Positions 8,867-64,000 of a DNA stretch of 64,000 nt are shown here, piece after piece. The position numbers were made by a program, and so were the translations under genes. The notes beneath the pieces are model-generated. The model was not told the DNA's origin. It did not search any database and worked only from the letters and a program-made list of their open reading frames with translations. The stretch is from positions 1 to 64,000 of IMG/VR virus record IMGVR_UViG_3300037420_000837, one strand, 5' to 3'. The first letter of the stretch is position 1. Each line of letters opens with the position of its first letter. This DNA is from a virus.

Positions 8867-10378
8867 TTATGTGTATGAGTTAAGCTGAGATTGTTCCCTA
8901 GCTTGCTTGAGGTCGGTGGAGATTTCTCCCTTTCCTCGGTACTTCCCGACGCACGCGTATTGAAACGCGTTCATCAGGTGGTCAGACCTCTTGCGAGGTT
9001 TGTCTTTGCTGAGCCCCTTCTGGTCTCCTTTGGAGAAGAAATCCCAGACGTAGTGCTCAATCTCTTGACGGAAGTTGTGAAGGTCGTTGAAGACGTAGAC
9101 CTTGGGGTGGCGGGAGCCTGCGGTTAGAGTCGCATTCATGTACTCTAGGCTCACATTGAGGCCGTAACTTTCGTCGAGCTCCGCGAGTCTCACGGGAATC
9201 CCCGCGTCTCGGTAGAGCATGAAATTCTGTTTGTGGTCGGCTGCGTTGCGCTGAGCGCCCCACTTGGGGTCAATTAGCCAGATATCGACTGGGTCCCCGA
9301 CATTGCGGAGCAGGATACTCTTGGCGTGCTCGGAAACCACCTTGTCCCGGTCGTAGTACTCCCGGTAGAGGTACATGTTGCCTTTGGGGTCAAAGGCGCA
9401 CCAGACAGCGGCTGTGGTGCCAGTGGCTGCAGGGTCAATCGAGACCACCCTTTTCCAGTCTTTCGGAATTGGGAAGGGCCGAATCATGTGGCGTTCTTTG
9501 TTCCACATGTTGTAGACCAACCCGGAGCGCTGTACGAAATCCCCGTAGAGGCGAGCTTTCTCCTCCGGATGACCTTTCCACTTCTCTAGGAGCTTTTCCT
9601 TTTCCGTGTCTGGGACGAAAGGGTTGTCCAGAACCGACAGGCTAACGAACTTAACGTCCTTTTTGCCTTCCTTGGCTTCCTCGTAGAGGTCGTAGACCCA
9701 AGGGATTCTAACGCCAGAGCTAATATCAGTAAGGGGCGTGAGAGTAAGCAGTAATTTGCCCGCGCAGTCGATGGTTCGCTGATAACACTCATCAAACACA
9801 TCCACTTCTGGCTCCTCGTCAATCCAGACGAGGTCTACTGAGGCACCCTGAAACTTCTCTCGACCGGAGTCAGCCGACTTGCCGGTGAGGATAGAGCCAT
9901 TGGTTGCGAAAACTTGATATTCCGAGTCCGAGACCTTCTTGATGACGGTGTCGTCTTTTGGGAGGAGGCCTGCGTGTTCACGGCCATGTCGGAGCTTTTC
10001 ACGCCAGATGACATCCCGAAGGGTGGGAAAGTCTAGTCCGACCACCCAGATGTTATTGGGTGGCTCCGGAACTGGGAGGTCTTTGACAAATTCCCAGAGG
10101 TCGGTGTTGCGGAAGTACTCTTTTCCGAGGAGCCATACGGTGGCAAGCACCGCTCCCAGCTCTGTTTTTCCGCTTCGGTTTCCTCCGAGCAGGGCAAATA
10201 TCTTGACATCCGGGGTAAATTGCTTAATTAGCGGCTTCTGCGCCTCGGTGGGCGTCCAATACTGCACATAGTTGTTGTCTTTGTGCTTTTTAGCGTGGTA
10301 TTTGATGAGCGCTGCCGCTTCTTTGTCACTGGAGGCTCGTTTTAGAAGTTCCCTCGCCTGTTCCAGTCTCTCGCTCAT
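8867..10378 (-). CDS. terL: terminase large subunit
   Basis: Walker A LLGGNRSGKTELG, Walker B VDLVWIDEEPE, C-terminal nuclease-like region; 503 aa. Confidence 0.85.
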   Translation of the reverse strand: MSERLEQARELLKRASSDKEAAALIKYHAKKHKDNNYVQYWTPTEAQKPLIKQFTPDVKIFALLGGNRSGKTELGAVLATVWLLGKEYFRNTDLWEFVKDLPVPEPPNNIWVVGLDFPTLRDVIWREKLRHGREHAGLLPKDDTVIKKVSDSEYQVFATNGSILTGKSADSGREKFQGASVDLVWIDEEPEVDVFDECYQRTIDCAGKLLLTLTPLTDISSGVRIPWVYDLYEEAKEGKKDVKFVSLSVLDNPFVPDTEKEKLLEKWKGHPEEKARLYGDFVQRSGLVYNMWNKERHMIRPFPIPKDWKRVVSIDPAATGTTAAVWCAFDPKGNMYLYREYYDRDKVVSEHAKSILLRNVGDPVDIWLIDPKWGAQRNAADHKQNFMLYRDAGIPVRLAELDESYGLNVSLEYMNATLTAGSRHPKVYVFNDLHNFRQEIEHYVWDFFSKGDQKGLSKDKPRKRSDHLMNAFQYACVGKYRGKGEISTDLKQAREQSQLNSYT

Positions 10379-23204: not shown

Positions 23205-24545
23205 GTGATGAAAGTCGTCTCGTACAAAGGCGATATGTCGACGATGGCTCAGGTAGAGCCGGGGATGTCGATTGAGTTGTACCCGAGCAAGGAGCTTGCG
23301 CGGGTGGTGCATGTGGATGCGAGCCGGATGTTTCCGCGAGGGAAGCTGGTGAGCATGGATGTCTGGCAAGGCCAGAAGCTGAACTCGTGGCAGTGGAATG
23401 TCAGGGATTTTCCACCTGAGGCCCCGGTCAAGGTGCTCAACGGGAAGATGGTGGAACTTCTCCTTGAGCGAGTCGGTAAGCAGATGGCTGACCAGAACAG
23501 GGTGACCACAATTATCAATCATCTGGGCATGGGCGTGAGTTTGGGCACGGACCCAGAGGTCTTTGTACGCAAGGGAGATGGGAGTTTATTGCCTGCGTTT
23601 GAGTTTCTGGGGCCGAAGCAGGGGAGTAGTGGGTACGAGTCGCCCTTCTGGGATGGCTTTCAGGCGGAGTTTACTACCTACTCCGGAGGGTGTATCGACG
23701 GGCAGACCACCTCGTGCAGGGCAGGATTGATGGAGGTTCTGCGCAGGGCGCGGAATGTGGACCCCAAGGCCAAGCTGGTGCTGGAGCCGGTGATTGAGGT
23801 TCCTACCGAGACCCTGAAGAAGTACGACAAGAAGTTCACACAGTTTGGATGCAGTCCGAGCATGAATGTGCATGGACTGAGCACGGTGCTGCCGGATGAC
23901 CACACGGAGGTCACCATTCGGCCAGCAGGGTTTCATTTGCACTTCGGTAACCCGATGCTGCAGATTCCCTACCACGCACGCAATGTGGTGAGGGCCTTGG
24001 ATGTGCTTGTGGGGCTGCCGTTCGTGGCCTTGATGGAAGGAATTGATGACCCAAGACGGAGGGCGTTGTATGGACTTCCCGGAGAGTTCCGGATGCCAGC
24101 TCATGGACTTGAGTACCGAACCCTTAGCTCCGCAGGGCTGTGTCATCCTGCCATCTATCAACTTGCTTTTGAGCTGGGAAGAATCGCTTGCCGAGTGGGA
24201 ACGCGGGGAGTGCTTCCCGTGTTGTTCAAGTATGACCCCAAGGAAGTAGCGGAGATAATCACCCGCACGGATGCAGGAACAGCACGCAAGTTCATGGCCC
24301 AGCACAAAGAGGCCTACGAGAAATGCGTGACCTATCGGTTTCAGGGGATGTATCACGGGAGCCTTGAGAGCAACAAATTTTCGTTCTGGCGAGGCATTGA
24401 AGGGGGCGTGGGGGCCTTGGTGAAAGACCCTCATAACCTTGAAAGCAACTGGGACTTGGATAGGTCCCGCCACGACGCTATGAGGTGTTCGAGATGGTCG
24501 CAGTTGGCAGAAAGAGTGGCAAACAGCAAGCAGCCGGTCTCGTAG
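23205..24545 (+). CDS. amidoligase-like protein, paralog 1 (GS-like carboxylate-amine ligase family, putative)
   Basis: shares GTDPEVFV and HLHFG motifs with paralogs at 28920 and 34791 (GADPEFVL/GGHVHLG; GCDPEVVC/GGHVWLD). Confidence 0.45.
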   Translation: MMKVVSYKGDMSTMAQVEPGMSIELYPSKELARVVHVDASRMFPRGKLVSMDVWQGQKLNSWQWNVRDFPPEAPVKVLNGKMVELLLERVGKQMADQNRVTTIINHLGMGVSLGTDPEVFVRKGDGSLLPAFEFLGPKQGSSGYESPFWDGFQAEFTTYSGGCIDGQTTSCRAGLMEVLRRARNVDPKAKLVLEPVIEVPTETLKKYDKKFTQFGCSPSMNVHGLSTVLPDDHTEVTIRPAGFHLHFGNPMLQIPYHARNVVRALDVLVGLPFVALMEGIDDPRRRALYGLPGEFRMPAHGLEYRTLSSAGLCHPAIYQLAFELGRIACRVGTRGVLPVLFKYDPKEVAEIITRTDAGTARKFMAQHKEAYEKCVTYRFQGMYHGSLESNKFSFWRGIEGGVGALVKDPHNLESNWDLDRSRHDAMRCSRWSQLAERVANSKQPVS

Positions 24546-28300: not shown

Positions 28301-28944
28301 AGAAGCATACCATTGACGGGATTTTCAAGAAGGGTCGGGGAGGGGTGGCTGCAAACGTGACAGGCACCATGCCAGCCCCGTTTCCGGGCAAATATCCCAC
28401 ACGGGTGTGCTTCAGTATCAAGGTGCACGGCAGACCCGAACGGATTGAGTACATCGGCAAGCCGAATGTGCAGATGATGTTGCGGTTCCATCGGTTTGTC
28501 GAGAGGGCGAGGTTGGATGGGTTTTTCTACTACGAGTTCGACCGCAAGAATATCGTAGCCCGGATGACGATGAGTTCTCGGGCCAGTTGCGAGAGGCTTC
28601 GGAGATACTATCATCCGTGGGCAGGGGTCTATAGCACCTACGAGGACTTCCTCAAGCCTTTCTATCGCAAGAAGGTTGGGGGAGCCACCTGCTACAGTCA
28701 ACACAAAGTCAACAAGATTTCGCAGGTCAATGAGTTCAAGGAGTGGCTGGTGAGCCAAGGCTTGGCTCCGGGGCATATCCTAACCAAGAAGCCTGCTCCG
28801 AAGAAACCGAAGACTATTGAGTGGCGCTACAACTGCGGGAATTGTGGGCATTCCTACCAGAGATTGAGTAAGCCCGAAAGTCTGGTAGTTCGTTGTAGCC
28901 TCTGTGGAGCATTCACAAGTTGGACGGAAAAGAAATCTCTATGA
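28297..28944 (+). CDS. hypothetical protein with C-terminal zinc ribbon
   Basis: CGNCGH...CSLCG at C-terminus. Confidence 0.4.
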   Translation: MKKHTIDGIFKKGRGGVAANVTGTMPAPFPGKYPTRVCFSIKVHGRPERIEYIGKPNVQMMLRFHRFVERARLDGFFYYEFDRKNIVARMTMSSRASCERLRRYYHPWAGVYSTYEDFLKPFYRKKVGGATCYSQHKVNKISQVNEFKEWLVSQGLAPGHILTKKPAPKKPKTIEWRYNCGNCGHSYQRLSKPESLVVRCSLCGAFTSWTEKKSL

Positions 28945-30455
28945 TTTGCACCGAAGAACGGAAAAAGTTTTTCACTGAGGCTGTGGGCAAGGGCTGGCGG
29001 GAGTTGAGCGAGGTTCCGGTGAACTTCCTCCCGGAGGTGCCCGAGCATGTCAAGCTGAAGTGGCTGAAGATTCTAAAGACCAGCAGGGTACCGAAGTATC
29101 CGGTGAACCCTCGACTGGTCAATCATTTTACTCTCGGGGCCGACCCCGAGTTTGTGTTGTATGACCCAACGAGCGGGTCCAGAATGGACGGGAATCGGTT
29201 GGGGCTGCGGACTGGCATGGCCTATGGGGTGGATTCCAATGGTCGTTTGCTGGAAATCAGACCCTGTCCCAGTCGGTTTGCCTTAGAGGTTCTGGCTAGC
29301 ACGCTGGTGACTCTTAGATGGTTCGCTCTGACGGTGCCTCAAGCTCTTGATTTCCAGTGGCGTTCGGGGGCATTTGTCTTGCGAGATGGTCTGGGAGGGC
29401 ACGTGCATCTGGGTAGGAAGACCGCGAACCGTAAGGTTGAAGTGGAAGCTCTGGACAGGGTGTTCCACCTATTGAACGGTTTAGGGGTGTTCCCGCAAGA
29501 TGAGTGCCAAGCACGGAGGGCAGGCGACCAGTTCAATCAGCGGTACGGACTAGACGGAGACATACGACTCCAAAAGCACGGGTATGAGTATCGGACCTTG
29601 CCAAGTTGGCTGGATTCCCCGTGGACGGCATATCTTTGCCTTGTATTGTCCAAGCTGGTCGCCCATGACCCTGCGATTTTTCACAACCTGCACAAGGGTA
29701 CGGTCTCGAAAGGGGGACAGACGAGGATTCTCAATCTGTTCCGAAAGTATGCAGGGCTGGATGACGATGCGGCGATTGCCGCGAGTGTACTGGAAAGACA
29801 TGGGTTGCCGAGCTTTCAGGGTGGCGACTTCAAGACTCGCTGGGGGTTGACCTACGCGAAGGATGCCCTGAAGGATAGGAATATCCAGATTCCGGGCAAC
29901 ATCAAGCCGAGTGCTGAGGAGATGCGGGAGCTGTTTTGTAGCTTGATGAACAATACTCCCTTGCACGCCACCATGCCTAAGGCTTACTGGCCGACACATC
30001 TGCCGAGTGGGTATCAGACGGTGTTGAGCTACACGGATACCACGAGGGTTGCGGGGCTGGGGGAAGTGCTAGCTGAGATGGTGGTCGAGTCGAAGCACGC
30101 CTTTCAATTCACGCACTCTGAGAGCATCACGGATTATTTGAGGGTGAGCTTGGATGTGGTCAAGAGCTTGCCGAAGAACTGGCGACAGCTTTGCGCGAAG
30201 GCGAGTGGCTTGCCGGAAGAGAGGTTCCGGGCCTATGACCAAGGCAAGAACGCGATTTTTATCGGGCGAGACGCGAGAACAAGCACGCACTTGAGAGCCG
30301 TGCGGAGGGCCTTGTTGAGTGAGGCTTTCCCGATTTGGAAGTTTGACGAGGTGAAGTCTGAGAGTTATTCGTGGTGGGTGGAGAAGAATACCCGCGAAAA
30401 GAAAGAGAAGCCTCGGAAGTTTGCCTCGAAGGTAATCTACGAGCGAGGCAAGTAG
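28920..30455 (+). CDS. amidoligase-like protein, paralog 2
   Basis: LGADPEFVLYD, LLEIRPCP, LGGHVHLGRK motifs shared with 23205 and 34791. Confidence 0.5.
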   Translation: MDGKEISMICTEERKKFFTEAVGKGWRELSEVPVNFLPEVPEHVKLKWLKILKTSRVPKYPVNPRLVNHFTLGADPEFVLYDPTSGSRMDGNRLGLRTGMAYGVDSNGRLLEIRPCPSRFALEVLASTLVTLRWFALTVPQALDFQWRSGAFVLRDGLGGHVHLGRKTANRKVEVEALDRVFHLLNGLGVFPQDECQARRAGDQFNQRYGLDGDIRLQKHGYEYRTLPSWLDSPWTAYLCLVLSKLVAHDPAIFHNLHKGTVSKGGQTRILNLFRKYAGLDDDAAIAASVLERHGLPSFQGGDFKTRWGLTYAKDALKDRNIQIPGNIKPSAEEMRELFCSLMNNTPLHATMPKAYWPTHLPSGYQTVLSYTDTTRVAGLGEVLAEMVVESKHAFQFTHSESITDYLRVSLDVVKSLPKNWRQLCAKASGLPEERFRAYDQGKNAIFIGRDARTSTHLRAVRRALLSEAFPIWKFDEVKSESYSWWVEKNTREKKEKPRKFASKVIYERGK

Positions 30456-30465
30456 GAGGACGAGA

Positions 30466-31497
30466 ATGTGTGGAATCGGTGGGTTTTACCGTTATGGTGA
30501 CACGCCAATAGACATTGACCAAATCAAGGCGCTGTTGTGTCAGTTGGAGCGCCGAGGCAATCACGCAACCGGGATTGCGTTGCAGGACGAGAAGGGGGAA
30601 GTGTTTGTGTGTAAGGCCCCGACTCCTGCGTGGAACTTTGCCGCAGGCAAGGAGTTTGAGGTCTTCATGACGAAGTACTTCAACGAGCGCACGAGGATTG
30701 CGCTGCTCCATACGCGGGCTGCGACTATCGGGAACCCGAATAAGAACGAAAACAATCACCCGATGTTTGCCGGGAAGGCCGCGATTGTCCACAACGGGAG
30801 TATCAACAACCACTCCTACTGGTTCAGCCAGAACAAAGACTGGGAGCGCAAGGCCGAGACAGACAGCGATGTCATTCGGGCGGTGGTGGATGAGCTAGGG
30901 ATTACTCCGGAGGCCATCAGGTATTTGAGTCGGTTCTCGGGAAGTGCGGCCATCATGGCGGTCAGTCCGGAGTATCCGGGGAAGCTGTTGGTAGGCCGGT
31001 CAGGCAAGCCTCTCACGATGGGCTGGAACGAGAAGGAGCAGATGCTCGCGTTCGCCTCTGAGAAGGAGATGCTCTACCACGCGACCAAGCCGCTCAAGGT
31101 GGCGCTGGGGTTTGTCTTTGCTGGCAATCGGAATGATTACATGTACTTCACCATCCCGGCAGACACGATGTACATCGTGGGCGAGAAGGGTAAGGAGTTC
31201 CACGATAACCTGCGGATTGCCAGCTATACCACAGGGGAGATGGTCTATCGGTGCAATGAGACTTACCACGAGACCAAGAAGCGCTTTGACCGGGAGACAC
31301 CTCCGCCCAAGCGAGAAGTAGTGACGGTCGATGAAGGGCCGTTGTATGTGAACTCCAAGCTGGACGTGGTGAGATGTCGGAATACCAAGTGCAACAACCT
31401 CATGGAGCTGGACGAGAAGCTCAAGAAGGAGCCACTCTGGGAGTTGGCTTGTGACAAGTGTGGAACCTACCTGATGGAGGAGCCGAAGAAGGCTTAG
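30466..31497 (+). CDS. class-II (Ntn) glutamine amidotransferase domain protein
   Basis: MCGIGGF N-terminal nucleophile Cys2; AGGAGGA SD. Confidence 0.65.
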   Translation: MCGIGGFYRYGDTPIDIDQIKALLCQLERRGNHATGIALQDEKGEVFVCKAPTPAWNFAAGKEFEVFMTKYFNERTRIALLHTRAATIGNPNKNENNHPMFAGKAAIVHNGSINNHSYWFSQNKDWERKAETDSDVIRAVVDELGITPEAIRYLSRFSGSAAIMAVSPEYPGKLLVGRSGKPLTMGWNEKEQMLAFASEKEMLYHATKPLKVALGFVFAGNRNDYMYFTIPADTMYIVGEKGKEFHDNLRIASYTTGEMVYRCNETYHETKKRFDRETPPPKREVVTVDEGPLYVNSKLDVVRCRNTKCNNLMELDEKLKKEPLWELACDKCGTYLMEEPKKA

Positions 31498-50962: not shown

Positions 50963-51796
50963 CTATTTCGGAAGCTTGTCTAGTTTACTTCGGACGGAGT
51001 CGTTGTCCGCAGGTGTTAAGTACAAAGCCGTTGTCTTCATATCCTTGTGGCCGAGTAGAGACTGCACCGTCCGCAGGTCAACCCCATTACGGAGCAACAA
51101 AGTCGCGTATGTATGACGCAGAGCGTGAAGCCCAATCCCATGAAAGCCAGCCAGATGCAACAGGCGCTTCCAGCGAGCCCGAAGAGTTCTCTCTGACGAG
51201 GTTCGCAGGATTGTATCCGGCGATTCCGCCTTTATCTGGCGCAGCAGCTCAAGCAAATCCGAGCGCAGCGGAACCGAGCGACCAACCTGAGTCTTCGATT
51301 GGTCTGCATCCAAAGTCAGAATCCCTGCATCCAAATCAAAGTTCCCCCAAGTAAGACGCACCATCTCCTTTGTGCGCAACCCCGTGGTCAGGCCGAGAAG
51401 TACTAAGGCCCTGTCTGCGGGGTTTTTTGCTGCCCCAAGAACCGCTTGGATAACCCTCTCGGGGATGGCCTTGCGCGGAGCTTGAGGCTCACGGAGCTTG
51501 CGGATGGAGCTCGCGGGGTTGAACGGGATATCCGGGTCGCGGTCTATCATCCAGTTCCAGAAGGCGCGAACTACGGTCACCTCGAAGTTGATGGTGCGGG
51601 TGGCAGCGCCGTCCCGCAAGCGGAGGATTTTGTAGTCCTCGATGTCCACGCGGAAGAAGTCCGCGACCCAGCGCTTCTCAGGGAAGCGAGAGAAGAAGTT
51701 GTCAAGGGCATCTGCATAGCGACGGGCAGTTGCTTTGGAGCTCGTCAGTTTGACGAAGTCCTCGTACTTGACGCGCATGTCATAAACTTTATTCAT
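50963..51796 (-). CDS. int: tyrosine recombinase/integrase
   Basis: C-terminal catalytic region LRHTYATLLLRNGVDLRTVQSLLGHKDMKTTALYLTPADND (R..HxxR...Y). Confidence 0.8.
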   Translation of the reverse strand: MNKVYDMRVKYEDFVKLTSSKATARRYADALDNFFSRFPEKRWVADFFRVDIEDYKILRLRDGAATRTINFEVTVVRAFWNWMIDRDPDIPFNPASSIRKLREPQAPRKAIPERVIQAVLGAAKNPADRALVLLGLTTGLRTKEMVRLTWGNFDLDAGILTLDADQSKTQVGRSVPLRSDLLELLRQIKAESPDTILRTSSERTLRARWKRLLHLAGFHGIGLHALRHTYATLLLRNGVDLRTVQSLLGHKDMKTTALYLTPADNDSVRSKLDKLPK

Positions 51797-52291: not shown

Positions 52292-55200
52292 TTATTTTGT
52301 TTCAAGTTCAGGTCGAATATCTTCGTGGAAGAACCGAAGAATCTCAAGCTTCTGTTCGTGCAGGTCTTTGATTTGCTGCATCTTCTCTTCGGGCTTGAGG
52401 TCGTTGTCCTGCGCCACGCGTTTCATCTCTTCGCGAATGGCTCCAAGGTCCTTCTCCATCTGCGCGACTGCCTCGTGAGCTTCGACAAGTCGCTGCCTGC
52501 GAGGGTCTTCCAAGTACTGGTCCGCACGGTCAAAGTCCGTGGCGGCGAGATGGTTGAAAGTCCGGTTGAAGATTCGCGAGGATTCTGCCGTGCGGTAGAA
52601 CTCCTGCTCAAGGTTGACTTCCACTTGGTCGAGCTGAGAGCCGACAAAGCGGCGAGCAATCGGGCCGACTACCGGAGCCTTGGCCCACTCCTCGTTGCCG
52701 GAGAGCGGGATGCCTCCAGTGTCGTTGCGGTTTTGCCCTTGGAGGGAGTCTGCCATGTTCTTAGCAAAGCCTCCAACGCCGGTTGTGAAGGAATCGTAGG
52801 CGTGCTCGAAGCGCTTGGGTGAGGTGAGCATGTCACCGACCACAGGCATCTTGGCGAGGCCCTGCTCTTGCCCGGAGTTGTCGTAGATGACCTTCGTAAC
52901 CTTCTGAGCCGTGACCGAGGTGTTCGGGTCGGATTTCTCTGGGTTCTCAAGGTCTTCCATTCCCTTGCCTTCGATGGGGATACCACGGTAGGAATCGTAG
53001 TTGGCCGCCTGCTCGATGGGCTCTTTGAGGATGGGATTGAGAGAGCTGAGAGCTCCGCGTCCGAGACCTTCCCATGGGTTGGACGCCCGGATGTTGAACT
53101 GTCCCGGGACTACGTTTGAGACAAAGTCCAAGGTCGTCTGCTTCCAGTCGATGTTCTTGCGGTAGGTGTCTTCGACCGCAACCTCGATGGGGTTGTAAAT
53201 GACCTTCGCCCAGTGAGGCTTGGGGACCTTGACGTAGTTCATGCGGGTCTGGCCAGTGGTGGTATCGTAGACCGAGCCCAGCATGACGTACCAGTAGTTC
53301 GTCTTGTCCGTGTCGGAGACGTGGTCGATTTCGAGCGAGCCATCATCCCTGACGTATTGCGAGTTCCATTGGAACTGCGCCATCGCCATCAGGGTTGAGA
53401 CTCCGAGCAGACCTCCGGCCATCTTCGGGTCAGATATCATGCGCCCAATAGTTCGTCCGGTTCCCTGCAGGTTCGCATTGAAGAACATGTAGACGAGGTT
53501 GATGGCTGGGGAGAGAGTGCCCGAGGAGCCGAAGTCCGGAGAGCCTCCGAAGTTGCGGGTCTCCCAAGCAGCTTCCTTGGGTGACATCCCGATGCGCTGG
53601 TTGCGCTTGAAGGACATCAGCTTGGTGCTCTGCTCGACGAGGTCGTTGAAGTCCTCAACGGTCTCGATGGTGCGGATGACGTTGCCTGCGGTAGCTTCAG
53701 CGGCTGCCTTGCCGTAGCGGCCTTGGGAGGCCATCTCGATAGGCTTGGCGACCATCTGCTTGAGCGGGTCAACCACCGGACGGTGGAACTCCCGCACGGG
53801 TGAGAGGTTGCGTTGGAGCGTGGAGAAGCCTGCTCTGGAGCGCAGGAAGTCGAGGTACTGCTGGTCCTGTGAGGCCACAGACTTGAAGGCTGAGAGCCAA
53901 TCGGGGACGAAGGTAGCAATGCCTCGGAGGCTCCGAGCGCCGGATTTCGAGAGCCCAGCGTAATCGCCTGCGTCACGCACAAGGTTGGGCACCGAGAACG
54001 CGAGGTTGGCGAGGGTTGCGCCGGTACGGAAGACTGAGGCAGTCGCCCGCAAGAGAGTGCCGCCCACGACAGCGGTTGAAGCGGTCGAGGCGTTCTCGAT
54101 GGTCGAGGCGACGAACTCAGGGACTGCGTATTCGGTCTTGACGCCATCATGCCACGCCACAATGATACCCTCGTTGGGAGCGAGAGTGTGGCGAGTGGCA
54201 GGCTGGATGAGTTGGCCCCAGCCGTTGGGGTCGATGCCAGCAAGGTTTAGAACCGAGCGCACCACGTTGTTCTTCTGGACTTCCTTGTTGGCAATCTCAA
54301 TCTGACGGAGCGCTGCCTCAAAGGGGTCCTGGTTGTAGAGCGGGGAGCCCTCAAGTTCTTGGAGAGCCCTGCGGGTTTTGACCTCCAGAGACTTCGAGGA
54401 GTAGCGAATCTCCGCCTTCTGCATCTCGTCAAGGATACGCTGGAGCGGGATGTAACCTCGGCCTAGTTCAAGGCCTTTGTTGTAGATGCCTTCGGAGATG
54501 AGACCCGAGGCGTGGAGGCTGTCCCACGAGGTCTCAAGCTCTTGGTAGACTTGGTCTGCCCAGCGGTTAACGCGGTCCCAGTTCTCGGGTCCGAGAGACT
54601 CTCGGGTGAGCTGTAGGTCGCGAGCCACCTTGGCGCGGGTGTAGCCCTCGGGGACCACCGTGCTCTGGCGGAGTTTGTTGAGATATTCCCGAGCGTCGGC
54701 GCGGGCCATACGGGCCTTGCGCTTGAGCTCGACTACCTCTCGCATCTTCGAGCTGGATTCCACACGGTCTTGGATATCCATGGTGAGGTCCTTGGCTTGC
54801 TGCTTGTATTGCGCAGCCTCGTTCATCAGCTTGGACATCTTGCCTTGGACGTTGCGGATAGCGCGGTCGTAGGCACGGAGGTTGAGCGTGTCCTTGAGAG
54901 GACCAAGCAGACCTGAGTCTGCGGCCTCGCGGGAGATTTTGCCCAACACAATCCGAGACGCGTAGGAGACTCCAGCACCGCCTCCGTAGGCCATGCGGGA
55001 TTCTTTCCACGGGTCTTGGTCGATGTGAAGCTCGCGGATACCGGTGCGGTTCTGGAAGTCCTTGATGACATCCGGTGCGAACATTCGCAGGAAGCGATTG
55101 GGATTCTGGTTGAGGTAGACGAATTTGTCGTAGAGTTTTTGGAGAGCGTTGTAGGGGAGAGTCCGAAGGGTCTCGACTCGCTGCGGCTCTCGGGTCATGC

Positions 55201-58200
55201 CCTGCTCGTTACGGATGCGGGTGAGCTCAGCTGAGACTGCCGGGATTTGCTCGGCATCTTGCTTGGCGAGGGTCTCGACCACGGAGCCTAGGCCGAAGAA
55301 GTCTGCCTTGAGCGTGGACTTGTTGTCTACGTTGCGGACGAACTCCCGGGCTTTGGCCAAGGCCATCGGGTCGTTGGCCCCAAGGCCGTCCTTGTAGAGC
55401 TGCATGGCTTTTTCTAGAACAAAGGCCTTGCGCTCTTGAGACAGGTCTCTGAGGGCCAGTTGGCGCGAAATAACATCTGTACCGGCAGCCGGTAAACTAT
55501 CGCTGAGCGTCTTGGCGTTGACAAGCGCTTTGACGGCATCGTCGGAGAGCGGAGGCTTAGCGGCAGACTTCTGCTCCATTGCCCGGAACAGTTCGTTGTT
55601 GATGTCGATGAGTTGCTGGTGGGCGACGCCAGACTCCTCCATGACGTGCATCAAACGATTGATGGTCTTGAAGAGAGCAGGGTCGTCGGATTCTTTGAGA
55701 CCAGCAAATTTTTGGTAATGACGAGCTTGGAGCTGCTGGGCGATGCGGTCTCTGTACAAGGCCAGCAACGCCATGTGGGTGTCGGGCTTGTCCTTGAACG
55801 CACGGTCAATGTCGGCGGACTTGAGGCCGGTTTCGAGGAGCCTGACCTTCATCTTCTCACGCGGGTCGGTGATTTGAAGCTGGTCGCCCTCGGCACGCCA
55901 CGTGGAGAGCGGCGGAGCGCCCTCACGGGCCATGTCGTACATGGCCTTCATGCTAGCAGGTCCGGGCTCCCCGATGTACTTGTCGGCAAGTTTTTCTGCA
56001 AGGGCACGCTTGGCCGCCCCGTCGAGGTCCGGGCGTTCCTTGACGAAGTCGAGGATTTTCTCTACAACTATCTTGCCCGTCTCTGGGTCGAACTGGGTGA
56101 TATGGTTGAGCTTGTCGAGGAGGTTGGCGTTGGGGGAGAGCGCCTTGACATCAGACACAGAAGCCCCCTTAGGAGCTTCGGGCTTAGGGGCCTCAACCTT
56201 AGGCGCAGGACTTGCCGTGACGTTCTTGGCTTCCTCCACCTTGACGGTGTTTTGAGGAGTCGGCTTGCGTGCCTCGTCGATGGGCTTCGGAGCGACAACT
56301 TGCTCCCGCTGCTCAGGCCCTTCGGCCATGATGCGGTCGACCGGCTGCACATATTTCTTCGAGCCCGACCGGAACTTGACTTTCTCGCCGTCGATGCTCT
56401 CGATAATGCCACGCAGCACGGTGCCGGTGGGCAACTTGACAGCCACACTGTCCCCGGGCTTGCGTTCCACTAAGGGGGCTTTTTGGTCTGATGATACAGA
56501 GCTTACAAGCTTCTCCGGAGCCACAGCCTTGAGCCTTGCCGCCACCTTCTCCAGCACCGTCTCAACTGTGTGCGTCGCCTGCCCGAGCTGCTCAAGCCGC
56601 TTGTTGTAAGCGTTCATGAGCGCGATGTTCGGATTGTTCTCTGGGTTGATGAGCTTCGAGTTGTCGGCCTTGGCAATCTTCTTAGCCAGCGCGGGCATAG
56701 CCTTGCGGATTTCAGCGCCGGTCATCGAAGCAATCTTGGTGTCGAACTTCGTGAAGGTATCCTTGAGACCTTCTTGGTAGAAGTAATCCGAGAAGTACCG
56801 GCCCTGCGGGAGGGCTTTGGAGGGACTAAGGTCCGGCTCACGCTCCGGCAGGAGCACTTCCTTGGCCTGCACGGCCTTGCGCACGGCGTCCGTAGCCACG
56901 GCTGCGAGGCGCTTGTTGCGCTCGTCCGCGAGGCGTTTTTGGACGGCCTCGACACCTTTGTAACCAAATTTTTCGCGCAGGAGTCCCGTGTCCCTGTAGA
57001 GATGGCCGAGCTCGTCAGAGGAAAGATGCTCAAGCTGGCGCTTGCCAGAGACTAGGTCGGTCAAGACCTCGCGATTGATTTTCTCTTGCACCCCTGAGAC
57101 CTTGGACAGATTCTCAATGGAGCGGTTGATGACCTCAGCTTTCTGTTGGAGCTTGTCGGCAGCGGCTCGGATTGGCTCGCGGTTCTGCTCGCGGATGAGT
57201 TCCTTGGCGGCCTTAGGGTCGACGGCCTTGAGCTCGCGTAGTTGCTCACGCGCAGCACGGTCCTCAGGAGACAAGCTACGCTCGTCCCCAATGAGCGTTC
57301 GCGGTTTCTTGCCGGTGATGGTCTGCAAGGTGCGGAGAGAAATCTCCGGAAGGATGCTCTTACCTTGGCCCTTCCGGAAGGGGTAATTGATTATGACCGG
57401 AGTCTTGTTCTCAAGGATGCTCTCGTACTGAGAAATGATTTCCGGATTGATGGCAGGGATGACACCACTGTCAACGTCTGCCTTGATTTTCTGAAGCTCC
57501 TTGCGGATGAACTCGTGGGCCTCTTCGACCTGAGCCTTCTGACGAGGAGTGGTGTAGCGTTGCAAGCGCTGGATGTAGGGCTTGCTCTGGTCTTGAACAT
57601 CCCCGAGGGCTTGATGGATGGCCCGCTTCTCCGCCTTGATGGAGGTTGGAAGCTGGTCACGGAGCTCCTTAGCTACGGTGTCTGAGGCGACTAGGTTGTC
57701 AAGGAACTGCTTGCCTTTGAGGGTAGTGTCCCGAGCGGTCTTGAGGTCGCCCAGCAGAGTCCGAGCATCGGCGTCGCCGAGAGCTGCGTGATACTCCGTC
57801 TGGGTGGCTTTGATTTGTTTCTCAAGCCTCGCATTGTCTTTGTTGAGGAACGCGACCTGATTGTCTCTGAGCAGCCCTCGTTCATGCCCCTTGGCCACCG
57901 CTTGGTCGTGCTTGGCCAACATCTTCTTGTTGGTCAGGTAGCGCTCTTGAAGGTCTCCGAGCTTGGCTTGGAGTTCAGTGGCTTTGGCTTGGTCTGTCTG
58001 CTTGACAGGCTCAATGCCTTTCGCCATATCTTCGCCTGTGCCGGGGCCGACTTTCTCCGCCCGAATGACACTCGCTAACTTCCGTGAGTACTTGTTGAGC
58101 GTAGCGGGGTTGCTTCCCTGATAGGGCTCAAAGCTCCCGTCAGAGAATACCCGAGCAACGCTCCCGCCACGCTTCTCAAGCGCAGGAGAGATGTCGGGCT

Positions 58201-60007
58201 GCTTGCCTAGGAATGTGATGTCTCCGCTAGGAGAGACGTGATAGAACTGCCCCGGACGGCTTATTTCTTCCGAGCTGAGCGCTCCATTGCCCCCTGCAGC
58301 GACGGTCTGTTCCGCTGTAGGTTGTGCTCCTGACGCTTCAGGCTTCGCCGCTGGGCTCGGGCGCGGGCCTTGGACTTGGGCTCCAGCAGGTTTCTGGCGC
58401 TTCTCCTTTTGCGCGTCCAAGATTCCCGCCAACGCGTCCGCTGCGGCGGTGTCACCAAGTTCTCTGGCTTTATCCAGTTGCTTCGAGAGTTTCGCAAACT
58501 CGTAGTCCGTGAGGGGTTCCCCGGGTTTAGATAATTGTCTATCGTCGCGCTGAGAGGTCTGTCGTTGCGGAAGTGGGATAGGTAAGCGCAGGCGGTCAAA
58601 CGCATCGAGATGTTTCGTCATCAAGTCGCCACGTCCCCGAGCGTAAGCAATACGCCCCTCCGAGTCGGCTACAACGAATAGTTTCTCGGGATTGGAGCCC
58701 AAGAATTTATTGAAACGTGAAGGTGGGATGGAAGACTTAACCTCCCGGACGCCTCGGTCATCAAACTCAAAGAAACGCGACTTCGCCAGCGTGCTGCCGA
58801 ATCCCGGAGCCGTCTCGGAGGGCGCGACCCCCTCGTTCTTCGGGAATAGGGTTTCTCCGTGCTCTGCATTGAACTTGACCATGAACTCTGCAAAAGCTTG
58901 GGGCCCTGCTTGCATGGCCTGTTCAAAACCTTCTTTGAAGCCCGGGACGACCTCCGCACGTTTAATGAAATCACGTGCAGCATCCAGCTCCATACGCATC
59001 CGACGGAGACGCCGCTCGCCCATCTGCTCCACCTCCGCCATGCTCTGAGCGAAAGTTTCAGTTTTAGGGGAGATTGGCGTAGGAGCCGGTTTAACGGCCT
59101 GCTGCGCCTTCGATGGGGGTTGGGCCGTTCCAGCTTGCTCTTGCGGCACTGCGCCCGATTCTGCCACACTGGCAGGGGTTTCCGCAACCAGCTTACCTTG
59201 AATCGGGGCTGTGGATTTCTGCTTTGCCTCCTCCAATTTAGGGGAGCGGAAAGCCTCGACGCCGTGTAGGATGGGGTCGGTAAGCGGGAGCATCCCGGCG
59301 AAGTTACCGCCGAACTCTTGGGCCTCAGGGGAGAAGCCCCGGGCCTTGAGCTCTTGGACGGTTGTCTCAGAGGCTACTCCAGAGGCTGTCAGAGCTACTG
59401 CAGTCCGGATAGGCTGGGTGACAAATGACCCTGCAATCAGCGGGGTAGCCATCCCACCGGCACCCGAGAGCACCTCGGAACCAGCCTTGAGCTTTTCTTT
59501 CTTATACTCCGGAAGGTTTTGGGTGGCCTTGCCTTGGAAGGTCGCCGCAAGCTGCTTGGCGTCCGCTTTGGCCGAGCGGCCTACACCTTTCGTGAAGCGG
59601 ATAGCGCCCGGGACTCCGGTCTGTTCCAGCTCCTCTCCGAGGTGTTGTTCGGTGGAGGCTGTGGCCAGTTGGTCTCGATAAGCCCCGAGGTCTTTGCGGG
59701 TGATGGTGTTTGCGTCCGTCAGGTCAAAGGCATCGAGGTCAGCTTGGGAGGCGTTCTGGTAGTAGAGATGCCCGTAAGCCTGCCCGTACTCCGGAGTTTC
59801 CGAGAGCTTGCTCAAGCCGAGAGGCATGGGAGCCCGAGGGGCAGGCGGGACGAAGTCCTTATCAAAACCCCCAAAACGCTCAATCGCGACCCGAGCGTTA
59901 GCTTCCTGCTGGGCATTGAGTTTGCCAGAGGAGACCAGCGTTTGGAGTCGCGACCTAAGCATCTCCCGGTCATCCGGGTGAAGTGTATCTACGATATTGT
60001 CAGCCAA
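52292..60007 (-). CDS. giant virion-type protein (2571 aa), mostly helical/coiled-coil; candidate internal/ejection or tape-measure-like protein
   Basis: single uninterrupted ORF; N-terminal half rich in KAEL coiled-coil heptads; no polymerase, SLT or other catalytic motif recognised. Confidence 0.65.
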   Translation of the reverse strand: MADNIVDTLHPDDREMLRSRLQTLVSSGKLNAQQEANARVAIERFGGFDKDFVPPAPRAPMPLGLSKLSETPEYGQAYGHLYYQNASQADLDAFDLTDANTITRKDLGAYRDQLATASTEQHLGEELEQTGVPGAIRFTKGVGRSAKADAKQLAATFQGKATQNLPEYKKEKLKAGSEVLSGAGGMATPLIAGSFVTQPIRTAVALTASGVASETTVQELKARGFSPEAQEFGGNFAGMLPLTDPILHGVEAFRSPKLEEAKQKSTAPIQGKLVAETPASVAESGAVPQEQAGTAQPPSKAQQAVKPAPTPISPKTETFAQSMAEVEQMGERRLRRMRMELDAARDFIKRAEVVPGFKEGFEQAMQAGPQAFAEFMVKFNAEHGETLFPKNEGVAPSETAPGFGSTLAKSRFFEFDDRGVREVKSSIPPSRFNKFLGSNPEKLFVVADSEGRIAYARGRGDLMTKHLDAFDRLRLPIPLPQRQTSQRDDRQLSKPGEPLTDYEFAKLSKQLDKARELGDTAAADALAGILDAQKEKRQKPAGAQVQGPRPSPAAKPEASGAQPTAEQTVAAGGNGALSSEEISRPGQFYHVSPSGDITFLGKQPDISPALEKRGGSVARVFSDGSFEPYQGSNPATLNKYSRKLASVIRAEKVGPGTGEDMAKGIEPVKQTDQAKATELQAKLGDLQERYLTNKKMLAKHDQAVAKGHERGLLRDNQVAFLNKDNARLEKQIKATQTEYHAALGDADARTLLGDLKTARDTTLKGKQFLDNLVASDTVAKELRDQLPTSIKAEKRAIHQALGDVQDQSKPYIQRLQRYTTPRQKAQVEEAHEFIRKELQKIKADVDSGVIPAINPEIISQYESILENKTPVIINYPFRKGQGKSILPEISLRTLQTITGKKPRTLIGDERSLSPEDRAAREQLRELKAVDPKAAKELIREQNREPIRAAADKLQQKAEVINRSIENLSKVSGVQEKINREVLTDLVSGKRQLEHLSSDELGHLYRDTGLLREKFGYKGVEAVQKRLADERNKRLAAVATDAVRKAVQAKEVLLPEREPDLSPSKALPQGRYFSDYFYQEGLKDTFTKFDTKIASMTGAEIRKAMPALAKKIAKADNSKLINPENNPNIALMNAYNKRLEQLGQATHTVETVLEKVAARLKAVAPEKLVSSVSSDQKAPLVERKPGDSVAVKLPTGTVLRGIIESIDGEKVKFRSGSKKYVQPVDRIMAEGPEQREQVVAPKPIDEARKPTPQNTVKVEEAKNVTASPAPKVEAPKPEAPKGASVSDVKALSPNANLLDKLNHITQFDPETGKIVVEKILDFVKERPDLDGAAKRALAEKLADKYIGEPGPASMKAMYDMAREGAPPLSTWRAEGDQLQITDPREKMKVRLLETGLKSADIDRAFKDKPDTHMALLALYRDRIAQQLQARHYQKFAGLKESDDPALFKTINRLMHVMEESGVAHQQLIDINNELFRAMEQKSAAKPPLSDDAVKALVNAKTLSDSLPAAGTDVISRQLALRDLSQERKAFVLEKAMQLYKDGLGANDPMALAKAREFVRNVDNKSTLKADFFGLGSVVETLAKQDAEQIPAVSAELTRIRNEQGMTREPQRVETLRTLPYNALQKLYDKFVYLNQNPNRFLRMFAPDVIKDFQNRTGIRELHIDQDPWKESRMAYGGGAGVSYASRIVLGKISREAADSGLLGPLKDTLNLRAYDRAIRNVQGKMSKLMNEAAQYKQQAKDLTMDIQDRVESSSKMREVVELKRKARMARADAREYLNKLRQSTVVPEGYTRAKVARDLQLTRESLGPENWDRVNRWADQVYQELETSWDSLHASGLISEGIYNKGLELGRGYIPLQRILDEMQKAEIRYSSKSLEVKTRRALQELEGSPLYNQDPFEAALRQIEIANKEVQKNNVVRSVLNLAGIDPNGWGQLIQPATRHTLAPNEGIIVAWHDGVKTEYAVPEFVASTIENASTASTAVVGGTLLRATASVFRTGATLANLAFSVPNLVRDAGDYAGLSKSGARSLRGIATFVPDWLSAFKSVASQDQQYLDFLRSRAGFSTLQRNLSPVREFHRPVVDPLKQMVAKPIEMASQGRYGKAAAEATAGNVIRTIETVEDFNDLVEQSTKLMSFKRNQRIGMSPKEAAWETRNFGGSPDFGSSGTLSPAINLVYMFFNANLQGTGRTIGRMISDPKMAGGLLGVSTLMAMAQFQWNSQYVRDDGSLEIDHVSDTDKTNYWYVMLGSVYDTTTGQTRMNYVKVPKPHWAKVIYNPIEVAVEDTYRKNIDWKQTTLDFVSNVVPGQFNIRASNPWEGLGRGALSSLNPILKEPIEQAANYDSYRGIPIEGKGMEDLENPEKSDPNTSVTAQKVTKVIYDNSGQEQGLAKMPVVGDMLTSPKRFEHAYDSFTTGVGGFAKNMADSLQGQNRNDTGGIPLSGNEEWAKAPVVGPIARRFVGSQLDQVEVNLEQEFYRTAESSRIFNRTFNHLAATDFDRADQYLEDPRRQRLVEAHEAVAQMEKDLGAIREEMKRVAQDNDLKPEEKMQQIKDLHEQKLEILRFFHEDIRPELETK
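56470..56493 (-). repeat. 25-nt motif copy inside giant gene, co-oriented, translated as SSDQKAPL
   Basis: CTAAGGGGGCTTTTTGGTCTGATG on plus strand. Confidence 0.85.
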
Positions 60008-62232: not shown

Positions 62233-62501
62233 TATCTGTCCTCTAACTTGATAAACTCAATCGGCGGGGTAGGCTCGTCGAGGACGATACCTAGCTTCTC
62301 GCAGATACGTTGCTGCGCATGGTAGATATGGGGAAGGTGGTTTGTCGCCATGCTCTCGACAAACTGCCTAGAAATCTCGTTTGCAACTGATTGCCGGATA
62401 AACCAACGTACGACTTGGATACAGTACTTCGTTAGGGTGGCAGCTCCAACGAGTATGGCTACTCCAGAGCTGGTTGCAAGGACGAGGGACGTGGTTGACA
62501 T
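62232..62501 (-). CDS. small membrane protein
   Basis: 89 aa, C-terminal TM helices; motif copy immediately upstream of ATG. Confidence 0.4.
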   Translation of the reverse strand: MSTTSLVLATSSGVAILVGAATLTKYCIQVVRWFIRQSVANEISRQFVESMATNHLPHIYHAQQRICEKLGIVLDEPTPPIEFIKLEDR

Positions 62502-62821
62502 TAAGGGTTTGAGGGGGCTTTTGTGTCTGATAGAACCCCGGCTGCAGCCAAGCTTGCCTTGACCGCCTCCACTTGAGCCTTCACATTCAGCAAGGCCGTG
62601 TGGGTTTCTTCAGACTTCGCCACCTGCTCCATGATTAAGGTTTGAACATCGGTTTCAAAACCAACTGCAGTGGTTCCAGCATCCTCAACAGCCTTGTCGA
62701 GTGCCATGACATTGAGGGTGTGGATGTTGTCCGTGGAGGGGTCATCGCAGCACCGCAGGGTGACTGCGATTTCTCCATTGGACAGGTCTTTGATTTCAAT
62801 TACTTTAGTAACACATGCCAT
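62501..62821 (-). CDS. hypothetical protein
   Basis: 106 aa ORF. Confidence 0.4.
   Translation of the reverse strand: MACVTKVIEIKDLSNGEIAVTLRCCDDPSTDNIHTLNVMALDKAVEDAGTTAVGFETDVQTLIMEQVAKSEETHTALLNVKAQVEAVKASLAAAGVLSDTKAPSNP
62511..62533 (-). repeat. 25-nt motif copy about 10 nt upstream of start of 62232..62501
   Basis: GAGGGGGCTTTTGTGTCTGATAG on plus strand. Confidence 0.8.
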
Positions 62822-62824
62822 AAA

Positions 62825-63955
62825 TTAGACAGGCTTCAGGTTGTGCACGCGAACGCCCCGGGCGAAGTAGGTGTGCCAAGGTTCTACGAGGCGCTTGACT
62901 TTCATCGAAGGGCGATGGGTGCAGGTCGGAGGAGACCTGAGTTCATACCACCTACCACCTTCGAGCTCGACGAGGTCGCCAGCTTGGAGGGTGTCGGCGC
63001 GTTTGAAGACGGAGACTAGAGTCCCCGGAGCCATGGCTAGACGCCCGTTGGGGGTGTCGATTTCTACCCACTCAGAGTTTGAGACAAGGGTCTCAACCAC
63101 TTCGGAGTCGGGGTAGTAGGAGACTGGAGTGCCTTCCTCGACACATGCTGAGCCACCCCCTGAGCCACCTGAACCTGCAGAAGTTGTAATCTTCCCGAGG
63201 TAGATACGTCCTTCAGCTGCGGTGAGAGTAGTGGTTGTCAGTGTCGCTTGGTAGGTGACTGCGCCTCCGGTGTAATTCGGGTCATCTACGTAGACGTAGT
63301 AAGTGCCGAAGGCCCCCGGGTTCACGGAACCTGAGTTGTAGCTTACTGTTCCGAAGCCGTACTGAAGGGTGAAGGCCGCGACGTTGATGGTTGTAGAGCC
63401 TGCTACGGAACTGAGCTGCGCGATGTTGGCAAAGCCGTTGGAATTAACGGGAGCATTTTCCTGCGTGTTGCTCTGCTTGACTATCGACCACGAATCGTAC
63501 CGGACATCCCACTCAAGGCTGTTGGTGATGGTGATGGGTGCGCCAGTGGTGTTGGTCGCATCGGCGTAGGCTAGAAGTTTTGCATATGCCCACGGATTCG
63601 CGCCAGCGGCAGGGATAGTGACAACCTTCCTAGTCAGGAAGTAAGGAAACCCGCCAGTGGTACTAGAAAAAACGGTTAGCTGTGAAACAATGGTATCGGT
63701 GTTGTCGTAGAGATTGAGGACAGCTCCCATACTATAGGTGATGCCTGCAGTAGGTCCCGACAGGCGCTGAGAGTTTGCGTAGAAAGAAACTACGTACTGC
63801 TGTCCTGCCACAATGGGAATTTTGGTTTGCTGTTCTACGTCTGCATAGTAGCGAGTGCCTGCTGGGATAGTACTACTTGGAGCGATTGAGAAATATAAGT
63901 TAGCATTTCCTGTATGGCTCTGAGCGGCGGTAGTGTCCCGCTGTGCAGTAAACAC
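62825..63955 (-). CDS. beta-rich tail-fiber-like protein with Gly/Ser linker and C-terminal Hint (intein/BIL-like) domain; frame stays open upstream to window edge
   Basis: SGGSGGGS linker then Cys-initiated about 100-aa module ending GVRVHN-LKPV (Cys1...His-Asn terminus typical of Hint domains); in-frame ATG also at 63982. Confidence 0.5.
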   Translation of the reverse strand: MFTAQRDTTAAQSHTGNANLYFSIAPSSTIPAGTRYYADVEQQTKIPIVAGQQYVVSFYANSQRLSGPTAGITYSMGAVLNLYDNTDTIVSQLTVFSSTTGGFPYFLTRKVVTIPAAGANPWAYAKLLAYADATNTTGAPITITNSLEWDVRYDSWSIVKQSNTQENAPVNSNGFANIAQLSSVAGSTTINVAAFTLQYGFGTVSYNSGSVNPGAFGTYYVYVDDPNYTGGAVTYQATLTTTTLTAAEGRIYLGKITTSAGSGGSGGGSACVEEGTPVSYYPDSEVVETLVSNSEWVEIDTPNGRLAMAPGTLVSVFKRADTLQAGDLVELEGGRWYELRSPPTCTHRPSMKVKRLVEPWHTYFARGVRVHNLKPV

Positions 63956-64000
63956 ACCTCCTACATTGCTACCCGGTTTCCATTGATAGGCGATATGTCC

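Follow-up and report, generated by a model that had tools for sequence, protein, structure and literature searches.

A mini-Hint module of probable BIL type near the C terminus of a tail-fiber-like protein from an uncultured phage

What would a phage tail protein gain from ending in a self-processing domain, and is there such a domain at this locus? The question is raised by a gene at the edge of a 64,000-nucleotide stretch of viral DNA (IMG/VR record IMGVR_UViG_3300037420_000837, positions 1 to 64,000; hereafter the window), which an earlier note had described as coding for a tail-fiber-like protein with a C-terminal Hint domain, of the kind found in inteins and hedgehog proteins. The reading that we favor, with somewhat better than even confidence, is that the gene encodes a distal tail protein carrying a Hint module of the bacterial intein-like (BIL) type, which would remove itself from between a Gly-rich tail and the last four residues, LKPV; we infer the chemistry throughout.

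The gene is a minus-strand open reading frame (ORF) at 62825..63955, with 376 amino acids (aa) counted from the first in-window GTG (63955), and its frame remains open to base 64000 (Table 1). The product reads ...EGRIYLGKITT-SAGSGGSGGGSA-CVEEGTPVSYYPDSEVVETLVSNSEWVEIDTPNGRLAMAPGTLVSVFKRADTLQAGDLVELEGGRWYELRSPPTCTHRPSMKVKRLVEPWHTYFARGVRVHN-LKPV*, where the module opens with CVEEGTPV and closes with FARGVRVHN. The linker, the Cys-initiated module, and the VRVHN-LKPV ending are all present as the earlier note had them, and its suggestion that the gene might be longer also held up: in BLAST alignments, two full-length relatives, P0002 (499 aa) and P0003 (641 aa), begin to match at residues 6 and 2 of the fragment and extend beyond it by 115 and 222 N-terminal residues, so the gene certainly extends past the window. 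A wrap-around of its 5' end to the window start was ruled out, as the in-frame bases 1-600 on the minus strand are full of stops. A frameshift isoform at the G5 run of the linker was likewise rejected; the alternative frames lack the conserved short tail, and nothing was found in its support. Our IMG/VR search returned no relatives of the window gene, and a search of JGI metagenome contigs for relatives or the full gene yielded only a domain-X fragment (L008). A 301-aa protein fragment on a 1.5-kb contig (P0001) is 100% identical to the window protein. In all, 74 database proteins match the fragment, and BLAST splits it into independently distributed modules. What had been described as one beta-rich region of about 270 aa is there but consists of two domains, a jelly roll resembling carbohydrate-binding modules (CBM) and a separate domain of about 80 aa, here called domain X.

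By predicted structure, sequence profile, and position, the C-terminal module is a genuine Hint fold. AlphaFold2, given an alignment of 13 window-type modules only and no templates, returned a model with a mean predicted local distance difference test score (pLDDT) of 95.2 and a predicted template modeling score (pTM) of 0.85. Compared with the PDB by Foldseek, the model had only inteins, BIL domains, and hedgehog Hint domains among its 50 best matches, with query-normalized template modeling scores (TMq) of 0.46-0.76. The best E value is 1.1e-4, for a RecA mini-intein, and the best TMq values are 0.76 for 2LWY (Clostridium thermocellum BIL) and 0.74 for 6Y75 (Tetrahymena BIL2). None of the Hint structures in this top 50 (118-249 residues) is as short as the module, at about 102 aa. 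Matches among the viral models of BFVD are phage inteins and auto-annotated Hint proteins.

At the sequence level, a profile built from all 21 modules found at this position matches the Pho RadA intein in the PDB (E=7.6e-6) and also the RecA intein, BIL2 (E~5e-4), hedgehog, and the Clostridium BIL. Members of the set match Pfam Hint_2 (2e-9), Vint, PT-HINT, Intein_splicing, and Hint. Some fiber relatives carry a textbook Hint in the same place, after domain X and poly-Gly, which starts with CFSxNT, contains VTPxH, and ends in AHN. Aligned by hhalign, the window-type and Hint_2-type modules gave 40% probability in a shifted register, which we read as the internal pseudo-twofold symmetry of the Hint fold and to which we give no weight. 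The model, the structural matches, the profile match, and the Hint_2 and Vint assignments of the relatives together bear out the original call of a C-terminal Hint, BIL-type and not a splicing intein.

We scanned 1.84 billion representative proteins exhaustively by HMMER with the window-type profile and recovered 70 proteins at E<=1e-3, 51 of them at E<=1e-10; about 10 of the weakest matches are long, multi-stretch proteins of other architecture. The window-type family thereby amounts to about 60 clusters at 50% identity, which are metagenomic, and the module ends a few residues from the protein C terminus in every full-length window-type match. The arrangement had been called rare, a description that is relative, given that number of clusters, the other Hint subtypes sharing the site, and the auto-annotated Hint-fold proteins from uncultured phages, some of them FN3-annotated, in UniProt. 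Our literature search found no description of a Hint or BIL domain on a phage tail fiber, and a tblastn search of INPHARED with another relative, P0012, gave only intein-like matches, in Gordonia phage capsid-associated genes. By these searches, the combination of a tail protein and a C-terminal mini-Hint appears in uncultured phages only.

Residue conservation was counted over 58 modules, collected by a pattern search over all relatives and HMMER-scan proteins and sharing about 40-60% mutual identity. Cys1, Trp26, Tyr93, and His101 are each present in 58/58; Asn102, Thr42, and Lys82 in 57/58; and Glu3, Gly5, and Lys104, the +2 residue, in 56/58. The Cys1...His-Asn signature from which the domain was first proposed is a property of the family. 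The distance from Cys1 to the Asn is 99-111 residues (median, 102), and what follows is a tail of 3-10 residues with the pattern x-K-x... in 57 modules, one apparently truncated sequence having a single residue. On the other side of the module, the -1 residue is Gly in 49/58, and the 12 residues preceding Cys1 are 57% Gly. Because 74 proteins match the fragment and the C-terminal module defines a family with invariant residues, the pattern is not due to chance.

Several observations weigh against an active Hint on a tail protein. The window-type profile on its own had no significant match among PDB sequences (hedgehog, E=0.09; spurious WW-domain matches), and the sequence link to inteins therefore runs through intermediate subtypes. 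The single window sequence matched nothing in PHROGs or the PDB. Pfam, named at the outset as a check on the domain, did not deliver one for the window copy: the best model, PT-HINT, is below threshold (E=0.19; 12.4 bits against a cut-off of 27.7), and the gathering thresholds of Hint_2, Hint, and Intein_splicing are not reached either. The residue register comes from hidden Markov model (HMM) alignments to RadA and RecA inteins and hedgehog, not from superposed coordinates. In that register, the block-B motif Thr-x-x-His is replaced by [His/Ala]-x-x-Thr, with position 39 at the Thr position and Thr42 at the His position, such that the canonical block-B His has become Thr family-wide. Position 39 is His in 31/58 and Ala in 20/58; the window copy reads A-P-G-T and hence also lacks the His that those 31 have three residues before Thr42. 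The block-F Asp position holds Lys84 in the RadA intein alignment. With the block-B His and block-F Asp both substituted, N-terminal activation would need an unconventional catalytic set. Moreover, the -1 residue of the window copy is Ala, rare in the family (2/58). As to the host protein, tblastn against INPHARED found no cultured-phage homolog of the window protein or of its Hint-less relative P0025, and with the N terminus outside the window, the assignment to the tail is indirect.

Other canonical residues are retained. Block-G His-Asn is intact in the window copy, and His91 takes the block-F His position (EPWHTYFA aligned to ETHNFIA). A His occurs at position 90/91 in 18/58 modules and is anti-correlated with His39: 4 modules have both, 27 have His39 alone, 14 have His90/91 alone, and 13 have neither (Fisher p=0.002, not corrected for phylogeny), the window copy combining Ala39 with His91. 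A possible reading is that one or the other position usually supplies a His, although 13 members have neither. The +1 residue, Leu in the window, varies across the family (Leu 14, Ala 11, Met 9), being Ser or Thr in 7/58 and never Cys. As far as the alignments can tell, the residues of the terminal chemistry are conserved and the usual helper residues are replaced. Because of the block-B Thr, the block-F Lys, and the missing +1 nucleophile, we regard the module as BIL-like and not as a splicing intein.

The main rival to autoprocessing is a dead Hint: the fold would be without catalysis and stay on the protein for good, as a structural or receptor-contacting tip in which Cys1 and His-Asn would serve folding, metal binding, or a disulfide. 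The family-wide substitution of the block-B His and block-F Asp positions, with no block-B His in the window copy, is what such a tip would look like, and Cys23 (40/58) together with a CPGG motif in about half of the family could form a structural Cys network. The window copy has neither Cys23 nor CPGG and still has Cys1. Furthermore, Cys1 is exactly the first residue past the flexible poly-Gly linker in every module and His-Asn lies 3-10 residues from the stop in all but one. Autoprocessing requires just such a boundary geometry, whereas nothing evident would make a plain scaffold preserve it. Active inteins lacking the block-B His are also on record, with compensation documented, by the account that PMC8616854 gives of its reference 67. 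We consider a dead Hint fairly unlikely.

The position of the module within its host proteins can be read from the ways in which domain-X proteins end. One kind of ending is domain X, poly-Gly, and a short tail (e.g., ...GGGGGRGYVQV, ...GGPRGKALLA, ...GGGRFLQ), and in about 22/26 of these, read by eye, Lys or Arg directly follows the Gly run. A second kind has an extra domain of ~75 aa, matching Pfam E1_FCCH, between domain X and the poly-Gly and short tail. The third has domain X, poly-Gly, a Hint, and a short tail, with at least five different Hint subtypes at this site, some followed by tails without Lys (PVT, FLTG, ISPGL). Nearly all carriers pass from a ...G-x-[IV]-T-T ending into poly-Gly. 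With a conserved Gly-rich stretch before it and a short terminal peptide after it, the Hint has an intein- or BIL-like insertion topology, and excision with re-ligation would recreate a C terminus like that of the Hint-less relatives.

The E1_FCCH-type class comprises relatives P0042-P0074 (about 258-302 aa), with the ~75-aa motif ISAATSANPI...HGW..GD.V...LPGDFGTNLNG. Its domain-X proteins end in, for example, GGGGGWVDDPYYV or GGGGGGxLP.

Modules are exchanged between host proteins as cassettes. P0003 is 46% identical to the window protein over the CBM-like domain and domain X but carries a different, 132-aa Hint subtype (24% identical), and P0002 is 37% identical over the same domains and 46% identical in the Hint. 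P0004 has a Hint 60% identical to that of the window and no BLAST similarity elsewhere; in P0008, the Hint is 59% identical, and elsewhere only ~15 linker-adjacent residues are similar. On these comparisons, the history of the module is decoupled from that of the host protein. The GC content of the Hint-coding part (62825-63145) is 58.9%, against 52.1% for the remainder of the gene (63182-64000) and 54.9% for the whole window, and GC at third codon positions is 67% and 55% in the two parts, respectively; the higher GC is compatible with cassette acquisition, not proof of it.

Such mobility might also be that of a selfish, mini-intein-like passenger, useless to the phage, that excises itself so that the fiber still works. 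Its presence or absence differs among related fibers, several Hint lineages occupy one site, and the decoupled phylogeny and divergent GC would fit. However, the module has no homing endonuclease and, at 102 aa, no room for one, and there is no +1 nucleophile. It also lies 4 residues from the C terminus of a variable protein, where one nonsense mutation would delete it almost cost-free. Because the module persists and diversifies where deletion is nearly free, we argue that it brings a benefit and hold a selfish passenger to be very unlikely.

Among known Hint systems, features and structural similarity to 2LWY suggest that the module is best filed beside the A-type BIL domains. As in the definition of that type, the +1 nucleophile is missing, the domain occurs in variable, non-conserved host proteins, and it ends in His-Asn (PMC7765530, PMC7664689); A-type BIL domains likewise occur in variable surface-type proteins and, like this module, are expected to cleave more than splice (PMC7765530; PMC7664689). 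The C. thermocellum BIL shares the Hint fold, Cys1, C-terminal His-Asn, and lack of a +1 nucleophile. It differs in size (138 aa against ~102 aa), and the block-B Thr, block-F Lys, HNxK motif, extreme C-terminal site, and phage tail hosts are particular to the module described here. Class 1 mini-inteins (Mtu RecA, Pho RadA, gp41-1) share the fold, Cys1, the block-F His in the case of the window copy, and block-G His-Asn. In contrast to them, this module is missing the +1 Cys/Ser/Thr, the block-B His, and the block-F Asp, and it occupies no conserved site in an essential protein. Nor does it part two substantial exteins, the C-flank being 4 aa and the host proteins variable. Of the features of the HINT superfamily, the fold and the initial Cys are present and the block-B Thr-x-x-His is missing.

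Hedgehog Hog/Hint domains resemble the module in the block-B region, with His and Thr swapped: TPAHLVSVW in hedgehog against HPDTLVSVF in the family. In the alignment, which used window-type sequences only, the family lsmHPDTLVSVF stands opposite hedgehog LTVTPAHLVSVW. Hedgehog Hint is a C-terminal autoprocessing domain that acts on an N-terminal "cargo," as is predicted for this module. Hedgehog does not make use of a terminal His-Asn, which this module has, and a sterol-recognition region is absent here, where only LKPV follows the Hint.

The best Pfam model, sub-threshold as it is, raises the possibility of a pre-toxin HINT that releases a C-terminal toxin, and polymorphic toxins do combine tail-fiber repeats, HINT, and toxin (PMC3482391). 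The architecture leads us to reject this reading, to which we assign next to no probability: only LKPV follows the domain in the window, family tails after the Asn are of similar shortness, and no toxin or immunity gene was detected. Homologs of the next ORF also follow Hint-less genes.

C-terminal intramolecular chaperone domains (Peptidase_S74) are found on phage tailspikes and fibers, including K1F endosialidase and T5 pb1. The role proposed here is the same, that of a C-terminal module on a receptor-binding protein that removes itself after assembly, but the likeness is one of analogy only. Peptidase_S74 uses a Ser-Lys dyad, whereas a Cys thioester and Asn cyclization are proposed for the Hint, and we found no sequence or fold similarity between the two.

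Starting from the observed fold, conserved terminal residues, insertion topology, and cassette exchange, the most likely function is autoprocessing that would remove the module and possibly re-join the tail. The gene product would be a distal tail protein of a temperate, podovirus-like phage, in the position of a fiber or needle-knob protein. In its in-window part, a jelly roll of carbohydrate-binding type would be followed by the conserved domain X as tip and by a flexible tail rich in Gly, with the 102-residue BIL-kind Hint inserted between that tail and the last four residues. After folding, Cys1 would attack the Ala285-Cys286 bond in an N-S acyl shift, giving a thioester, and Asn102 would cyclize with the aid of His101 and His91, breaking the bond to the LKPV tail. 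The thioester could then be resolved by water, as plain cleavage, or through attack by a tail amine, whether the alpha-amine (the route of the Clostridium BIL) or that of the +2 Lys (the route of Tetrahymena BIL2). By either route, the Hint would leave, and the mature fiber would end in the Gly-rich tail with or without a short peptide, like its Hint-less relatives. The module would thus be a self-removing C-terminal appendage, with a role like that of the auto-cleaving chaperone domains of other tailspikes. Both outcomes have precedents: BIL domains without a +1 nucleophile give mostly cleaved products (PMC7664689), and they can ligate "without nucleophilic side chains," in the words with which that paper introduces its reference 16.

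The conserved +2 Lys may have a part in the chemistry, either as the nucleophile or paired with Glu3 in catalysis. Alternatively, the mature protein may retain the tail to which this Lys belongs, implying ligation over simple loss. The closest model is BIL2 of Tetrahymena BUBL (6Y75/6TMM), which has a Gly-ended N-flank, as this module does, and joins it through an isopeptide bond to the epsilon-amine of a Lys, the nucleophile, in its C-flank or in other proteins (PMC8616854). BIL2 is eukaryotic, lies between two ubiquitin-like domains, has a block-B His69, and is Zn-activated; here the C-flank has four residues and that His is absent. On this model, the family might be an unrecognized Hint lineage (~102 aa, HxxT/AxxT, HNxK) that performs lysine-directed ligation, as an isopeptide cap or a cross-link to a subunit, a virion protein, or a host-surface amine, which we regard as unlikely.

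In a related form, the thioester would be a conjugation device, moving the Gly-rich C terminus to a Lys of another subunit, a virion protein, or a host surface molecule as a covalent cross-link, independently of ATP and in the manner of the ubiquitin-like conjugation by BIL2. The Gly-rich N-flank ending at Cys1 resembles the ubiquitin diglycine terminus (Ub-GG), the +2 Lys is nearly universal in the family, and BIL2, which makes Lys isopeptides with several substrates (PMC8616854), is among the best structure and sequence matches. However, no partner was identified, the conserved Lys lies within the module's own tail and so points to an intramolecular reaction, and the other Hint subtypes at the site do without a tail Lys. 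We think a conjugation device quite unlikely, and self-removal of the module remains our preferred reading.

The identity of the host protein was approached through its upstream domains. AlphaFold2 folds residues 33-175 into a beta jelly roll (mean pLDDT of the model, 77), with pLDDT by blocks mostly 81-93 across these residues and ~66 and ~70 at the two ends of the domain. Foldseek matches it to CBM16, CBM4, CBM22, and CBM61 (E about 1e-5 to 2e-4), in agreement with a weak Pfam match of the window protein to CBM_4_9 (E=0.33). Domain X is common to ~60 proteins with 45-67% identity, many of them 215-300 aa long and many on phage-like contigs of ~40-45 kb. Pfam, PDB, and PHROG searches gave domain X no identity, and its profile found only 4 short proteins in a set of 5.8 billion, an uninformative yield. 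The N-terminal extensions of P0002 and P0003 look like FN3, and the FN3 region of P0003 matches tail-fiber PHROGs (E=3e-7). The window protein, P0004, and P0008 had no PHROG match and no Pfam match above threshold. "Tail-fiber-like" is a reasonable but indirect description, by way of the CBM-like fold, the FN3 domains of relatives, and gene position; no named homolog was found.

Gene order gives a similar picture, with relatives beside adaptor/nozzle-like genes or a gp10-like gene. The window is a segment of a phage genome that encodes portal and large terminase proteins and also DNA polymerase and primase; a tyrosine integrase is present, and the phage is therefore probably temperate. Downstream of the Hint gene on the same strand, tightly packed ORFs of 106, 89, 116, 230, and 388 aa precede one of 2571 aa. 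The 106-aa ORF had no Pfam or PHROG family match, and homologs of it lie directly downstream of domain-X genes in two other contigs (L004, 10708-10965; L005, 11906-12199); its product could be a conserved partner or assembly factor. The unusually large 2571-aa protein has a 1275-aa LPD38 homolog in the P22-like contig L004 and is a candidate for an internal or ejected virion protein. In L004, the coat gene is followed a few genes on by a gp10-like "Phage_stabilise" gene (480 aa), the Hint-less P0025 (236 aa), and an 85-aa gene homologous to the 106-aa ORF, with the 1275-aa gene four genes after the 85-aa one. We take the slot of P0025 to be the tail-needle slot of the P22 gene order.

Hint-bearing relatives in four contigs (L005, L006, L007, and L009) follow a gene of ~620-650 aa, which in L005-L007 follows an SU10-type adaptor gene, with one or two genes interposed in L005. 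P0008 (342 aa; L002/L003, 10001-11029), with the same mini-Hint type, belongs to a siphovirus-like prophage that has bacterial genes on its flanks, where it comes two genes after a probable tape measure gene of 837 aa. The same type is also found on a 634-aa ORF (L009, 8414-10318) in a contig of an Edaphobacter (Acidobacteriota) metagenome-assembled genome (MAG). Given these varied neighborhoods, the carriers would be distal tail proteins of several tail types, and the cassette would cross tail types. Acidobacteria are possible hosts, given the Edaphobacter MAG and the annotation of P0023 as Terriglobia.

Elsewhere in the window, in its early/replication region, the plus-strand genes at 23205-24545, 28920-30455, and 30466-31497 comprise two COOH-NH2 ligase-like genes and one glutamine amidotransferase-like gene by PHROG. 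They may form a nucleotide or DNA hypermodification cluster.

Table 1. Positions of the Hint gene, its parts, and other genes in the 64,000-nucleotide window
Feature	Position	Strand	Basis or remark
Hint gene, 3' part (391 codons + TAA)	62825..64000	-	ORF reading; 5' end outside window
CBM-like beta jelly roll, fragment residues 33-175	63476..63904	-	AlphaFold2, Foldseek, weak Pfam CBM_4_9
Domain X, fragment residues 195-273, end GRIYLGKITT	63182..63418	-	Common to ~60 proteins
Gly/Ser linker SAGSGGSGGGSA, residues 274-285; Ala285 is the -1 residue	63146..63181	-	Translation
Mini-Hint module Cys1-Asn102 (residues 286-387)	62840..63145	-	AlphaFold2 pLDDT 95.2, Foldseek, profile matches to inteins
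Cys1 codon (Cys286 of fragment)	63143-63145	-	Translation
Block-B equivalent A39-P-G-T42	63020..63031	-	HMM alignments to RadA/RecA inteins and hedgehog
Ala39 codon (block-B Thr position)	63029-63031	-	HMM alignment
His91, block-F His position	62873..62875	-	RadA intein alignment
Block-G His101-Asn102; Asn102 codon 62840-62842	62840..62845	-	H 58/58, N 57/58
Tail Leu-Lys-Pro-Val (62828-62839) and TAA (62825-62827)	62825..62839	-	+2 Lys is the family signature HNxK
106-aa ORF, 3 nt past the Hint stop, same frame (TAA TTT ATG)	62501..62821	-	Possible partner
2571-aa ORF, LPD38 "large polyvalent protein" domain	52292-60007	-	Pfam E=3e-18; phrog_9854
Tyrosine integrase, directly after the 2571-aa gene	50963-51796	-	phrog_1, E=3e-49
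Terminase large subunit	8867-10378	-	Window gene
Portal	1539-3524	-	Window gene

If the module proves inactive, it would simply be a tip domain with a Hint fold, and the result a modest addition to the annotation of metagenomic dark matter. Activity would give phage receptor-binding proteins a second means of self-maturation, unrelated in its chemistry to the serine-type auto-cleaving chaperone domains, and the ~102 residues of the module would make a very compact self-cleaving or ligating tag. Lysine-directed ligation, if true, would mean that the assembly or adsorption of phage tails includes a ubiquitin-like conjugation step that needs no ATP. Because it lacks the block-B His and block-F Asp, the module would be a useful test of which residues Hint chemistry needs. 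A single site that is filled by several Hint lineages or left empty in close relatives is also a natural setting in which to study the purpose of BIL domains.

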